Part shown: positions 45,125 to 49,244 of the stretch, one piece after another
Layout: each line of letters starts with the position of its first letter
Position numbering within the stretch: the stretch's first letter is position 1
Virus record (IMG/VR): IMGVR_UViG_3300035181_001974
Length of the DNA stretch: 64,000 bases
Direction: 5' to 3' (one strand)
Source of the DNA: a virus
Made by a program: the position numbers and the translations under genes
Notes under the pieces: generated by a model
Databases searched by the model: none
Told to the model about the DNA's origin: nothing
The model's input: the letters and a program-made list of their open reading frames with translations, nothing else

Positions 45125-45303
45125 ATGAAGCGCAAGCCCGTACCTAACATTGAGGACCTCTTCGTGGCGGCGATTCAATCGTCGCTTGAGGCAGCGCACC
45201 TCCTCAAGTTGTCGCACGACCAGTTCATGGCCCTTGTGGAAGGTGCTTGGCAGGTCGATGCGGAACGTATGTCGAAAGAAACCCAAGAAGGCAAGGAGAA
45301 ATA
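45125..45303 (+). CDS. hypothetical small protein (59 aa, below ORF-track cutoff)
   Basis: ATG at 45125, ends ...EGKEK* just before 45307; located in an otherwise AT-richer intergenic region. Confidence 0.3.
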
Positions 45304-45306
45304 GCA

Positions 45307-45852
45307 ATGACCTGTATCATTGGTTTGGTGGACGGTAAGAACGTGTGGCTCGGCGGCGATCGTGCCGCGACGGGCGGCAATCTAGGTCGCACCCTCATCA
45401 AGCATCCCAAGATCTTCACGAAGAGCGGTATTGGCATCGGCGTCAGCGGCTCGTCCAAGGTCATGGATGCCATCCAACACGCCATCGAGTTCCCGAAGCA
45501 CGAGGAAGGCGTGGCGACTAAGACGTTCCTCGTTAATGATCTGATCCCGGCCTTCCGCGAGGGTCTGAAGAAGCTCGACTGCCTCGTTGAACACCACGGG
45601 CAGTGGTATTTTCACGGTGCCTTGTTGATCGGGTACAGAGGCGAACTGCACATGGTCGAGGGCAACTTCCAGCTCATTGAGAGTGCACGGGAGTTTGACG
45701 CGATCGGCAGCGGCGCCGAGCCAGCACTGGGTAGCCTCCGTGCCACGCGAAATGAGGGGCCGAAGAAGAGGATCCTCGAGGCGCTCAAGGTTTCTGCAGA
45801 AAACAATGCCGGCGTCGCACCACCGTTTGACACCCTGATGGTGAAAGGTTGA
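45307..45852 (+). CDS. HslV / proteasome-beta-like Ntn-hydrolase, paralog 1
   Basis: MTCIIGLVDGKNVWLGGDRAATGG.. compare HslV [24 protein letters not shown]; C-terminal DAIGSGAEPALGSLRA matches HslV AIGSGGPYAQAAARAL. Confidence 0.6.
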   Translation: MTCIIGLVDGKNVWLGGDRAATGGNLGRTLIKHPKIFTKSGIGIGVSGSSKVMDAIQHAIEFPKHEEGVATKTFLVNDLIPAFREGLKKLDCLVEHHGQWYFHGALLIGYRGELHMVEGNFQLIESAREFDAIGSGAEPALGSLRATRNEGPKKRILEALKVSAENNAGVAPPFDTLMVKG

Positions 45853-45855
45853 ACC

Positions 45856-46401
45856 ATGACCTGCATTGTCGCACTGGAACACGAGGGTACTGTCTGGGTC
45901 GGTGGTGACTCTGCAGGCATCGATGGTTTGAGCATCTGCAACCGGGCCGATGAGAAGGTCTTTATCAACGAGAACCTCATCATGGGGTTCTGCGGGTCCT
46001 TCCGCATCGGTCAGTTGCTACGCTACTCGCTCGAGGTCCCCGAGCAATCGGTGAAGCAGACCGACGACATGGAGTACCTGGTCAATGACTTTGTTGATGC
46101 TGTCAGAGAACTCCTGAATGAGAAGGGCGCGGCGAAGAAGGAGAACGAGCTGGAAGAGCATGAGTCGTCCTTCATCGTTGGCTTCAAGGGTAAGATTTAC
46201 GTGGTTGAAGAGGACTACCAGGTGGGTCGACCCCGTGAGAACTACGCGGCCGTGGGCTGCGGCGCCCAGATCGCTCTGGGCGCCCTGTACGCTACGAGGA
46301 ACAGCAACATGCAACCCCAAGATCGTCTCCGCGTGGCCCTCGAGGCCGCAGCAGAGTACAGCGCGGGCGTTCGAGGACCCTTCGCCTTTTTGAGCCTCTG
46401 A
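45856..46401 (+). CDS. HslV / proteasome-beta-like Ntn-hydrolase, paralog 2
   Basis: MTCIVALEHEGTVWVGGDSAGIDG..; AAVGCGAQIALGALYA. Confidence 0.6.
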   Translation: MTCIVALEHEGTVWVGGDSAGIDGLSICNRADEKVFINENLIMGFCGSFRIGQLLRYSLEVPEQSVKQTDDMEYLVNDFVDAVRELLNEKGAAKKENELEEHESSFIVGFKGKIYVVEEDYQVGRPRENYAAVGCGAQIALGALYATRNSNMQPQDRLRVALEAAAEYSAGVRGPFAFLSL

Positions 46402-46413
46402 CACAGGAGAGAG

Positions 46414-46989
46414 ATGCAGAACCCTTCCTTCACCGTTTTCTGCGGTCCGATGTTCTCGTCAAAAACATCGCGACTGTTGATGGAACTGGAGCGTTGCAAG
46501 TTCCAGCACAAGTCCGTCGCGGTCTTCAAGCCGCAGATCGACACTCGTTATGCAGTCGGTGACATTGTCAGTCACAGCGGCTGGCGAGCGCAGGCTGTGA
46601 CGGTGAAGGAAGGCGCCGACCTGTTGCAGCACATCCTCGACAGCGACACCGACTACAAGGTCATCGCTGTCGACGAGGCCTTCATGATTCACGGGATCGC
46701 TGAAGTGCTAATTTTCTTGTATCGCTCGGGTTTCTCGATCATCGTCTCCACGTTGGACATGGCCGCCAATGGGAAGCCATTCCCGGAAGTCACCCAACTG
46801 TTGCCTTGGGCGACCGAGGTCATCAAGTGTACCGCTGTCTGCACTGTTTGCGGCCGTGATGCTCATTATACGCATAAGAAGGTCACGGGCGGTGATGAAC
46901 ACACCGTCGAGGTGGGCGGCGACGAGCTCTACGAGCCGCGGTGTTGGGAGCACCACTTGCTGATCAACAACAAGCACAAGATGCCTTGA
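46414..46989 (+). CDS. tdk: thymidine kinase
   Basis: P-loop VFCGPMFSSKTS; zinc motif CTAVCTVCG...C..H; size 191 aa. Confidence 0.85.
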   Translation: MQNPSFTVFCGPMFSSKTSRLLMELERCKFQHKSVAVFKPQIDTRYAVGDIVSHSGWRAQAVTVKEGADLLQHILDSDTDYKVIAVDEAFMIHGIAEVLIFLYRSGFSIIVSTLDMAANGKPFPEVTQLLPWATEVIKCTAVCTVCGRDAHYTHKKVTGGDEHTVEVGGDELYEPRCWEHHLLINNKHKMP

Positions 46990-47004
46990 CAAATACATCA
47001 TCAG

Positions 47005-47457
47005 ATGACGCTAAAATCACTCATTACCGAGGCGGTACGGGCGCACCTGTTTGAACAGGTCCGCAAGAAGTTCAACATGCACCTGCCCGATGATCTCAGG
47101 CAGTTGGCGACCCTCTTCAAGAGCGCTGGACACCAGCTCTACGTTGTCGGCGGTTCAGTCCGCGATGCTTTGCTGGGCAAGGAGCCCAAGGATTACGACG
47201 TTGCGACTGAGGCGACTCCTGACCAGGTTATTTCGCTCCTGGAGACTGATCCCGGCCTCAAGATCCTGCCCATCGGCAAGTCATTCGGCGTCGTCAAGGT
47301 GATCACTCCCGAGGGCGGTGAATATGAGATCGCCACCTTCCGCAAGGAGACGTATGCTTCTAATACTAGGGATGACTTTGTGAAGTTTATCCGCGCAAAG
47401 GGACCAGAGTATGAGAAAAGGCTTCGTCTGTTCATTGATCGATCCGATCACGCCTAA
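47005..47457 (+). CDS. cca: CCA-adding tRNA nucleotidyltransferase, N-terminal piece (head domain) - gene interrupted
   Basis: LYVVGGSVRDALLGKEPKDYDVATEATPDQV...GEYEIATFRKETY is the class II CCA/polyA polymerase head; the continuation motif (RRDLTINA) is found only in the downstream ORF 47654..48529. Confidence 0.75.
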   Translation: MTLKSLITEAVRAHLFEQVRKKFNMHLPDDLRQLATLFKSAGHQLYVVGGSVRDALLGKEPKDYDVATEATPDQVISLLETDPGLKILPIGKSFGVVKVITPEGGEYEIATFRKETYASNTRDDFVKFIRAKGPEYEKRLRLFIDRSDHA

Positions 47458-47614
47458 AATTCGTTACGTTGGTATAACTGTAGGACCGTGGAATAAAGGT
47501 GTTCTGGCAACTCAAGAACACAAACGTAAATTGGGTGTTCCCAAGCCCCTAGAACAAAAGAACATTCAGAACGTATTGCTCAATCAAAACGTGAAATGTG
47601 GGCAAAAGGATTGA
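47411..47614 (+). pseudogene. GIY-YIG homing-endonuclease-like relic inside the CCA gene interruption
   Basis: KGFVCSLIDPITPKIRYVGIT mirrors I-TevI GIYQIKNTLNNKVYVGSA (GIY...YIG spacing); ORF only 67 aa. Confidence 0.4.
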
Positions 47615-47653
47615 CCGGTCGACTTACTACAACTTCTAAGAAAGACGTAACAG

Positions 47654-48529
47654 ATGACGTGGCAAAAGATAGCAAAGGAAATATTTCCTGAAGAATTCAA
47701 GCAATTTGAAAGACTTAATGGTCGTCGGCCCGACGCGGTCGAGTTCACTGACATTGCTTCGGACGTGCAGCGCCGCGATCTGACGATCAACGCCTTGTTC
47801 TACGACATCGACAAAGGGGAGATCGTCGACTTCGTCGGCGGAATCGACGACATCCAGAACGGGATCGTCAAGGCAGTTGGAGACCCAGGTGCGCGATTTG
47901 CAGAAGACAGGTTGCGCATCCTGCGGGCCCTGCGATTTGCGACACGCATGGGGTCACAACTTGACCCTGCGACGGCTCAGGCCATCAAAAATGACAATAA
48001 GTTGAGCGGGGTTTCCCCTGAACGAATTAGAGACGAGTTTTTGAAGGGCATTCTAGCGACCCGATCTGTGCCGTCGTTCCTTGACATGATGGAGGAGTAC
48101 GACCTCTGGCCACAGGTGTTCCCGGGTCTTAACGTTGCGCGGGTTCCGATCGACACGAAGAACGTGCCGGTGGTTCTCGCCCGATTGTTGTGGGGTAACG
48201 CTCCCGATCTTGTGGCAAAGCGCCTTAATGCGTTGAAGTACTCTGCCGACGAGGTAGCGCAGGTGACGTTTCTCCTGCGATTCAAGGACTTGACTCCCGA
48301 GAATGCCTTCAGGCTACGCAAGGCTTACCTGATCAGCAAGCTGTCGGACAAGGACTTGATTGAGTTCGCTGCAATGAAGAGCACGCCTGAACCGCGCTTG
48401 GTTCGAGCCTTCCTGAAGTACAGGCCCACCATCACAGGTGATGAGCTAATGGCACAAGGATTCACGGGCGCTCAGTTGGGCAAGGAGATGGAGCGCCGTG
48501 AGACGGAGCTCTTCAAGGAGTTACTGTGA
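47654..48529 (+). CDS. cca: CCA-adding tRNA nucleotidyltransferase, C-terminal piece
   Basis: GRRPDAVEFTDIASDVQRRDLTINALFYDIDKGEIVDFVGGIDDIQNGIV...AVGDPGARFAEDRLRILRALRFATRMG = canonical continuation of the head plus neck. Confidence 0.75.
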   Translation: MTWQKIAKEIFPEEFKQFERLNGRRPDAVEFTDIASDVQRRDLTINALFYDIDKGEIVDFVGGIDDIQNGIVKAVGDPGARFAEDRLRILRALRFATRMGSQLDPATAQAIKNDNKLSGVSPERIRDEFLKGILATRSVPSFLDMMEEYDLWPQVFPGLNVARVPIDTKNVPVVLARLLWGNAPDLVAKRLNALKYSADEVAQVTFLLRFKDLTPENAFRLRKAYLISKLSDKDLIEFAAMKSTPEPRLVRAFLKYRPTITGDELMAQGFTGAQLGKEMERRETELFKELL

Positions 48530-48984
48530 TGACCCACAATAGCGAAGAACTGCGGCCCACCTGGCCTTCGATCTGGATGGCAGTCGCCAAGACGATTGCC
48601 TTGCGTTCTTACGATCCCAGGCTAAAGGTGGGCGCCATCGTCGTCTCATACGACAATACCCAGATGTTGTCGATCGGGTACAACGGCAACTACAAAGGCG
48701 GGCCACACGAGCACGAGTCGAAGGAACCTGGCAAGTCAGGCTTTATTCACGCCGAGGTCAATGCGCTGGTCAAGTGTGACTTCAACTTTCCCAAGAAGAA
48801 ACACCTGTACGTGACTCACAGCCCGTGCAAGGACTGCGCCAAGTTGATCATCAATGCTGAGATTGCCCGAGTTGTTTATGAGATTCCCTACCGCGATCCG
48901 GCAGGGCTAAATCTCCTGCGGTCCGTCGGTATTGAAGTGCTATCGCTAGAGGATGCGATTATCAACTCAAGATTGGCCCGTTGA
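48526..48984 (+). CDS. dCMP deaminase
   Basis: zinc-binding HAEVNAL and PCKDCAKLI motifs; 152 aa. Confidence 0.85.
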   Translation: MMTHNSEELRPTWPSIWMAVAKTIALRSYDPRLKVGAIVVSYDNTQMLSIGYNGNYKGGPHEHESKEPGKSGFIHAEVNALVKCDFNFPKKKHLYVTHSPCKDCAKLIINAEIARVVYEIPYRDPAGLNLLRSVGIEVLSLEDAIINSRLAR

Positions 48985-49244
48985 CTTTTACGTCAAAAGC
49001 ATCAATACGTACATTCAGTACGACAGCGAATATTGGCACGGTCTTGACCGCTCCATCGACGTCATGATGGCATCACAAATCCACGTGACAAAGGAATCTA
49101 TCGCAACTGGCTTTCAGATCGTGCAAAGGATGAGTGGTTTACCGCTCAAAACATGACTCTATCGATAGTTGTACATGGAAGAACGAAAGCCAATCGTGAT
49201 GACCTGCGTCTCAAGCTGGAGAGAATACTTACCGCCAGGGCCCG

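Follow-up and report, generated by a model that had tools for sequence, protein, structure and literature searches.

A phage CCA-adding enzyme gene in two pieces around the relic of a GIY-YIG homing endonuclease gene

In a 64,000-nucleotide stretch of virus DNA, IMG/VR record IMGVR_UViG_3300035181_001974 (the whole stretch is referred to here as the window), the coding sequence of a CCA-adding enzyme breaks off within its catalytic head domain and resumes about 360 nt further on in another reading frame. This raises the question of whether the gene carries an intron, has been inactivated, or is expressed in two pieces. A preliminary description, made from the letters of the sequence alone, had proposed a CCA-adding enzyme gene interrupted near 47350 to 47715 by AT-richer DNA, with its continuation in a different frame within the next open reading frame (ORF) and an endonuclease relic with a GIY...YIG start in between. 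It had read the interruption as a group I intron in a T4-like setting, for which it suggested a covariance-model search, and had kept an enzyme made as two polypeptides as the fallback. We conclude, with good confidence, that the gene has been split in two by a decayed homing endonuclease gene (HEG) cassette rather than by an intron, and that both polypeptides would have to associate to build one active site.

The locus consists of three ORFs on the plus strand in the ORF list (47005-47457, 150 aa; 47411-47614, 67 aa; and 47654-48529, 291 aa), which are flanked by a gene for thymidine kinase (46414-46989) and one for dCMP deaminase (48526-48984). The Pfam family PF01743 (PolyA_pol head) is divided between the two outer ORFs, with its positions 1-77 in the first and 73-125 in the third, which additionally bears the RNA-binding domain PF12627, and the frames of these two ORFs differ by +1. 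Unsplit relatives read ...EYEIATFRxD(I/M)GxGRRPDAVEF... at the split site. The nearest of them (P0001 on contig L004, 75% identical), which lies in the same gene order as in the window (thymidylate synthase, thymidine kinase, CCA enzyme, dCMP deaminase, and superoxide dismutase), has FRRDMGKGRRPD where the window has FRKETY, 361 nt of extra DNA, and NGRRPD. The extra DNA occupies 47356-47716 (about 47347-47716 when the codons E-T-Y, which derive from the cassette, are counted in), and GC content is 0.38-0.45 over about 47350-47710 compared with 0.55-0.60 outside. The interruption, the change of frame and the AT-richness described at first were therefore all borne out. Contigs L001 and L002 provide further uninterrupted, syntenic relatives. 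In all, more than 100 homologues besides P0001, and two huge uncultured phages, are uninterrupted at this site. Considering that at least eight contigs of this phage show the split arrangement (the longest being 309 kb, and the two retrieved copies being 100% and 99.9% identical), an assembly error is excluded, and the interruption is confirmed as a genuine feature of a large phage genome. We detected no DNA-level similarity between this genome and catalogued phages, only protein-level matches to huge uncultured phages; these are its closest named relatives, and the T4-like setting of the preliminary description is not supported. Across the whole 64-kb window, no tRNA genes were found despite the presence of a tRNA-maturation enzyme, and no Rfam family reached its gathering threshold. 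Inteins were also considered in the longer (500+ aa) homologues, but their extra length is N- or C-terminal and none was found at the split site.

The nature of the middle ORF (47411-47614, plus strand) could be established by comparison with contig L035, an IMG/VR contig with a CCA enzyme 63% identical to that of the window and the same arrangement, in which an intact 224-aa HEG lies between the halves and passes Pfam PF01541, PF07460, PF07453, and PF22083 (GIY-YIG, NUMOD3, NUMOD1, and I-HmuI NUMOD-like, respectively). The window ORF aligns with residues 1-66 of this endonuclease (pairwise tblastn E=2e-10; MRKGFVCSLIDPITPKIRYVGIT vs MKKGFVYSLICPKTSDVRYVGIT). The DNA of the two loci is 68-70% identical at the junctions (68% at the left one), and in both of them the start of the endonuclease ORF overlaps the tail of the N half by 46 nt. 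Judging by this homology, the 67-aa ORF is confirmed as a relic of a GIY-YIG HEG, as its GIY...YIG start had suggested. That start is retained (the first ~27-66 residues), while the other parts of the catalytic domain and the DNA-binding domains are gone, and the relic is therefore dead; an intact HEG of this kind would have a full GIY-YIG catalytic domain (GIY, YIG, Arg, Glu, Asn) and DNA-binding modules. Neither Pfam nor PHROG gave a significant match for the 67-aa ORF, including its frameshift-corrected conceptual protein, and no paralogues of the relic were found elsewhere in the window. NUMOD3-like motifs were read in two frames of the relic, but they remained unproven as profile searches gave no match. 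The order of N half, GIY-YIG HEG, and C half was also observed in L090, L093 (T4-like context), and L092 (with a frameshifted HEG), and the L090 HEG passes PF22945 and PF07460. As a separate observation, the HEGs of L035 (273-947) and L090 (3971-4681) share only the C-terminal DNA-binding half, at 45% identity. A domain swap is suggested by the assignment of their catalytic domains to two distinct GIY-YIG families of Pfam. In L099 (427-708), an unrelated 93-aa ORF without a family match stands in the place of the endonuclease gene between the halves.

If the interruption were a group I intron with a decayed GIY-YIG ORF, about 360 nt would be spliced out and a single 387-aa enzyme would be made. 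Phage group I introns often contain GIY-YIG HEGs, the insertion is located within a conserved catalytic region, and many U(-1)/G(omega) pairs would give in-frame joins. Enumeration of U(-1)/terminal G splice pairs yielded 221 in-frame solutions, and hence the splice-site criterion does not discriminate. When Rfam was searched with permissive filters and E<=10, no group I or II intron was found in 46800-48300. Neither the group I model RF00028 nor a group II model had a match in L035, L090, L092, or L093 (E<=10), whether their HEGs are intact or decayed, or window-wide at the gathering threshold, whereas the T-even td/I-TevI intron, used as a positive control in the same search, was recovered as Intron_gpI (42.5 bits, E=5e-9). 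The covariance search suggested in the preliminary description thus revealed no intron core with a control that worked. The predicted RNA fold of 47340-47730 is no better than that of shuffled sequences (minimum free energy z=-0.72), and the DNA flanking the HEG is constrained at the amino-acid level in the frames of the supposed exons and contains stops in the other frames, as expected for coding sequence under purifying selection. Furthermore, the C-half ORF of L090 begins 4 nt past the stop codon of the HEG, and the HEG of L093 overlaps both neighbouring ORFs, such that no non-coding room is left in these relatives for a ribozyme core (P3-P9, with the G-binding P7), which would take about 200 nt or more. 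For these reasons, the group I intron was rejected as a very improbable explanation, and the evidence supports the fallback of an enzyme made as two polypeptides.

Two polypeptides might still be the remnants of a dead gene. In this alternative, the insertion would have inactivated the enzyme and the ORFs would be decaying, or one half would keep another role. The split interrupts the catalytic head domain at a loop without which A is not added, and the ribosome-binding motif at the start of the C half is weak, both of which would fit such a history. However, the sequences of the two halves do not look like those of remnants. The N-half body (47005-47346, plus strand), to which the PF01743 1-77 match and the 75% identity to P0001 on L004 apply, contains motif A (GGSVRD...DYD) and the third carboxylate strand (EYEIATFR) and extends into the beginning of the BxA motif; its ratio of nonsynonymous to synonymous differences per site (pN/pS) is 0.26 against L004 and L035. 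The C-half body (47717-48529, plus strand), with PF01743 73-125 and PF12627, contains the remainder of the flexible loop (NGRRPDAVEFTDIAS), followed by motif B (RRD) and motifs C-E, together with the domains for neck, body, and tail, and has a pN/pS of 0.23-0.30; for the enzyme body overall the ratio is 0.26-0.30, with synonymous sites saturated. The 441 codons of both halves contain no stop and no frameshift and keep all invariant motif residues. Since the HEG has been reduced to a 67-aa relic while these 441 codons stay intact, continued function of the split enzyme is supported. The split also recurs in dozens of divergent lineages, in which both halves are always intact and adjacent, and its persistence in many lineages, including others without HEG, points in the same direction. 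Finally, the extensions of the two halves described below, which are present only in the cassette state, have a pN/pS of 0.22. A dead gene is therefore quite unlikely in our judgement.

As for the kind of enzyme, the PolyA_pol head, motifs A-E, the flexible loop, and the RNA-binding neck and body of a class II CCA-adding enzyme are all found across the two ORFs. The presence of the flexible loop, which is required for A addition (PMC2910056), suggests that the enzyme is not of the CC-adding type, and the signature of bacterial poly(A) polymerases (PAPs), [LIV][LIV]G[RK][RK]F (criterion from PMC2910056), is absent, with IGKSF instead. By similarity score, E. coli PAP I (1e-36) and CCA-adding enzymes (5e-35) match the split enzyme about equally. 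In the nomenclature of PMC2910056, the split site directly follows the BxA motif (R113-K-E115) and precedes motif B (RRD), and thus falls within the variable flexible loop.

Between the two halves, 47615-47653 (plus strand) was read directly in the window and L035 as a deletion scar followed by the translation-initiation region of the C half. Here, AAGAAAGA at 47638-47645 resembles the Shine-Dalgarno-like AGGAAGGA of L035 (10/13 bases of the surrounding motif, compared by eye), and the ATG of the C half is conserved in L035; the blastn alignment between the window and L035 at the right junction begins only at 47657. No promoter- or terminator-like site was found between the two halves.

Both halves carry short extensions at the split that are lacking in the unsplit enzyme. 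The cassette-derived end of the N half (47347-47457, plus strand), recognized by its divergence from empty alleles, comprises E-T-Y and a 33-aa tail (ASNTRDDFVKFIRAKGPEYEKRLRLFIDRSDHA) and ends with a TAA stop codon at 47455-47457, whereas the cassette-derived start of the C half (47654-47716, plus strand), which is conserved across split loci, comprises the ATG and a 21-aa head (MTWQKIAKEIFPEEFKQFERL). Between the window and L035, the part of the tail upstream of the HEG start has a pS of 0.87 and a pN of 0.19, and the head has a pS of 0.70 and a pN of 0.15, giving the above pN/pS of 0.22 in each case, which equals or falls below that of the enzyme body (0.23-0.30), and the other reading frames of the tail contain stops. 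These substitution patterns indicate that tail and head are translated and that purifying selection acts on them. When the N half was used as a query, 91 short proteins were retrieved, 48 of which end in FRxxxY plus a homologous tail; as these are representatives of 90%-identity clusters (some from contigs up to 453 kb), the family comprises at least 48 such N-half clusters. In an alignment of 43 N halves, F125 of the tail is invariant and Y117 nearly so, like catalytic residues. An exhaustive HMMER search likewise revealed many C halves (about 295-335 aa) that begin with a W-x-x-I-A-K-x-x-F-P-x-E-F/Y head motif, and the head is conserved in L035, L090, L092, L093, L098, L099, P0212, and P0213 as well as in many C-half representatives (taken at 50% identity). 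Most examples came from protein databases; scans of IMG/VR and JGI contigs with degenerate patterns for tail and head retrieved few loci. We also considered whether the tail might have arisen by duplication and divergence of the exon downstream, and the head by duplication of the one upstream, but this idea was dropped after Smith-Waterman comparison with shuffled sequences, in which z was about 0 for the tails and did not exceed 2-3 for the heads. In two predicted proteins, P0219 (on L102) and P0218, tail and head are joined in frame without an endonuclease gene, as if the split had healed; one of their sources is a 776-nt contig at 0.7x coverage, and the other ends in unrelated sequence and is possibly chimeric.

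Whether these extensions belong to the host gene or to the cassette could be examined in pairs of filled and empty alleles, and such presence/absence polymorphism with altered flanks was observed in relatives of the window's lineage. The flanks of the split gene of L092 and the unsplit gene of L101 are 98.9% identical on both sides, with a 1309-nt segment of L092 (tail, frameshifted HEG, extra domain, and head) in place of 6 nt of L101. Over ~35 nt to the left of this cassette there is a run of mostly silent substitutions, and its right edge is sharp at AAAGGTCGTAGA (K-GRRP), a pattern that would fit co-conversion or selection for a cleavage-resistant target. In the second pair, the split P0122 and the unsplit P0004 are identical over 137 aa bar one residue and then diverge at the same Asp-to-Glu position, such that both filled/empty pairs diverge from this E. 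The comparison of these near-isogenic alleles shows that the cassette is mobile as a unit, tail and head included; tail and head arrive with the endonuclease gene and are not native to the host genes.

This finding bears on another alternative, in which tail and head form a functional insertion domain, for example a modifier of the loop or of substrate choice, inside which the HEG happens to reside, and the halves join via their normal interface. A module located at the loop that controls the C-to-A switch could have such a role, the in-frame versions P0219 and P0218 might represent fused forms of it, and the tail is predicted to be helical by itself. However, the nearest unsplit relatives of three split genes (P0001/L004, L101/P0050, and P0004) lack the module, and thus it comes with the cassette and did not pre-exist in the host gene. 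In addition, the fused examples are the low-coverage contig and a probably chimeric protein. We consider an insertion domain unlikely, if somewhat less so than a dead gene.

Several further variations were noted among the relatives. In some of them, such as L092 (4765-6150) and P0223, an additional domain of about 100-170 aa precedes the C half and its head in an in-frame fusion; in L092, this N-terminal domain has weak matches to ART-PolyVal, DUF3990, and PARP (E 0.01-0.05). In L099 (709-1020), P0213, P0141, P0161, and P0183, there is a second break after motif D, where the gene ends in ...EDPLRILRFFRFFSRFN followed by a stop codon, and the CCA enzyme gene of these phages is apparently in at least three pieces. 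P0214 (1312 aa) contains two CCA-enzyme-like modules in tandem plus further domains (four matched stretches).

How might two such polypeptides work as one enzyme? Most probably, a homing cassette without intron or intein invaded the CCA enzyme gene at the start of the flexible loop of the head domain. In this cassette, a tail-coding segment with a stop codon is followed by a free-standing GIY-YIG/NUMOD HEG, a ribosome-binding region, and an ATG with a head-coding segment. In the lineage of the window, the HEG has since lost about two thirds of its length and died, while the split stayed. One transcript would give two polypeptides of 150 and 291 aa that are both expressed and associate into one active site with CCA-adding activity, the N half supplying motif A and the carboxylates and the C half supplying motifs B-E and the tRNA-binding body. 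The 33-aa tail and the 21-aa head may form a small module of four amphipathic helices that bridges the halves at the loop as an adaptor; by holding them together, this module would render the insertion harmless to the phage. In its general form, the idea is that tail and head are a cassette-borne peptide splint, which folds together and reconstitutes any invaded CCA-adding enzyme non-covalently. We put this forward tentatively, as a plausible proposal that falls a little short of being the expected outcome.

Structure prediction is in part consistent with this proposal. The N and C halves were concatenated and aligned with 77 relatives as input for AlphaFold2, which predicted a complete CCA-adding enzyme fold (mean predicted local distance difference test (pLDDT) score 91.4, predicted template-modelling score 0.80). 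A Foldseek search with this model retrieved the solved class II CCA-adding enzymes 6qy6, 1miv, and 4x4w at E~1e-16. The model predicts two helices in the tail (122-131 and 134-147) and two in the head (153-160 and 162-171, in concatenated numbering), with a block pLDDT of 72-89. The alignment has no depth there because MAFFT did not align tails and heads correctly in the presence of unsplit sequences.

Several observations weigh against a split enzyme held together by its extensions. The tail helix is predicted with similar confidence from the N half alone, and the AlphaFold2 comparison hence did not show that it depends on the head. As A addition depends on the flexible loop (PMC2910056), the activity of the split enzyme could be altered or incomplete. 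The ribosome-binding motif of the C half, AAGAAAGA, is weak, and a weak or absent Shine-Dalgarno sequence is also found at most other genes of the window. The low pN/pS of the enzyme body may partly date from the unsplit state, as the cassette is mobile. Lastly, there are the two in-frame fusions of tail and head, P0218 and P0219, both from poor or possibly chimeric contigs.

Several known systems resemble this locus. Among T4-like phages, genes split by HEGs include nrdA with mobE in Aeh1, genes 39/60 with mobA, and gene 43 in 25 and 44RR; such splits are known for few enzymes, and how the pieces reassemble has been called an open question (PMC2988022). In nrdA/mobE of Aeromonas phage Aeh1, there is likewise no intron or intein, and a promoter-less HEG cassette is packed tightly between the halves (PMC2988022). 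However, the HEG there is of the HNH type, whereas it is GIY-YIG here and the target is a tRNA nucleotidyltransferase. Moreover, the cassette described here adds conserved extensions to both halves and moves as a unit, and the HEG in the window has decayed. In T4 genes 39/60, with mobA and a 50-nt bypass cassette, extra sequence also keeps the host gene functional (PMC2988022; bioRxiv 10.1101/2022.08.31.505936), but that element acts on the ribosome through translational bypass, whereas the extra sequences here appear to be translated peptides; bypass is implausible in the window because the gap is about 200 nt and the C half has a separate start codon. Gene 43 of Aeromonas phages 25 and 44RR consists of two cistrons with or without a seg-type (GIY-YIG) HEG (PMC2988022), such that the split outlasts the loss of the HEG, as in the window and L099; this is another enzyme, though, and no conserved cassette-borne pair of tail and head has been described there. 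The T-even td gene with I-TevI also has a GIY-YIG endonuclease with NUMOD-type modules in a conserved nucleotide-metabolism or RNA-processing gene, but it has a ribozyme core detectable by Rfam, which this locus and its relatives lack.

The fractured genes (PMC2677866) suggest yet another way of restoring the enzyme, namely a split intein in which tail and head would trans-splice the two polypeptides. Fractured genes have the same order of N part, HEG, and C part (N-extein, HEG, and C-extein), a metagenomic and phage distribution, and mobile extensions. However, the 33 and 21 residues of tail and head are far below the size of a HINT fold, the residues after the head are Asn-Gly or Lys-Gly with no Cys/Ser/Thr nucleophile, no intein Pfam family matched, and the pieces are predicted as plain helices. 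A split intein is thus the least probable of the explanations considered, to the point that we give it hardly any weight, and as tail and head have neither the motifs nor the nucleophiles of inteins, the halves could reassemble only non-covalently.

With two adjacent ORFs that have their own stop and start codons, unsplit orthologues, and a HEG relic in between, the locus is of the genes-in-pieces kind, and it differs from the described cases by its target enzyme and by the conserved cassette-borne extensions on both fragments. Our literature searches, which covered open-access papers, revealed neither a previously described split gene for a CCA-adding enzyme nor extensions of this kind.

Other features near these loci may be mentioned. 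In the window, a second low-GC patch (0.44-0.48) coincides with a 67-aa ORF at 48953-49156 (plus strand), the beginning of which lies within the 3' end of the gene for dCMP deaminase; this ORF has no Pfam match, its IQYDSEYWHG looks nuclease-like, and it may be the remnant of a mobile element. Directly upstream of the thymidine kinase gene lie two adjacent paralogous genes (45247-45852 and 45856-46401, plus strand). For the second, the copy carried by L008, an identical contig, weakly matches Proteasome (PF00227), and the first has no recorded Pfam match. Beside the split CCA gene of L090 (501-3181), there are PCRF (52 aa) and RF-1 (134 aa) pieces, a PTH2-like gene, and two tRNA genes, and the release factor of this phage may also be fragmented.

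The window thus adds the CCA-adding enzyme as a new target of gene splitting, with the break at the flexible loop of the catalytic head domain, and shows the decayed end-state of a widespread mobile cassette. With at least 48 clusters of N halves and many of C halves, the split enzymes form a large metagenomic family that had gone unremarked and in which the mobile cassette always brings the same short pair of peptides. For annotation, both ORFs should be joined conceptually as one split enzyme, and treated neither as a pseudogene nor as an intron-containing gene. If tail and head are adaptors, this would explain how the element spares its host gene and would make the pair a compact natural tool for splitting proteins. 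If the proposal holds true, such cassettes would represent, besides self-splicing introns and inteins, a third way for a HEG to be harmless within an essential coding sequence, and tail and head would be a natural portable split-protein adaptor.

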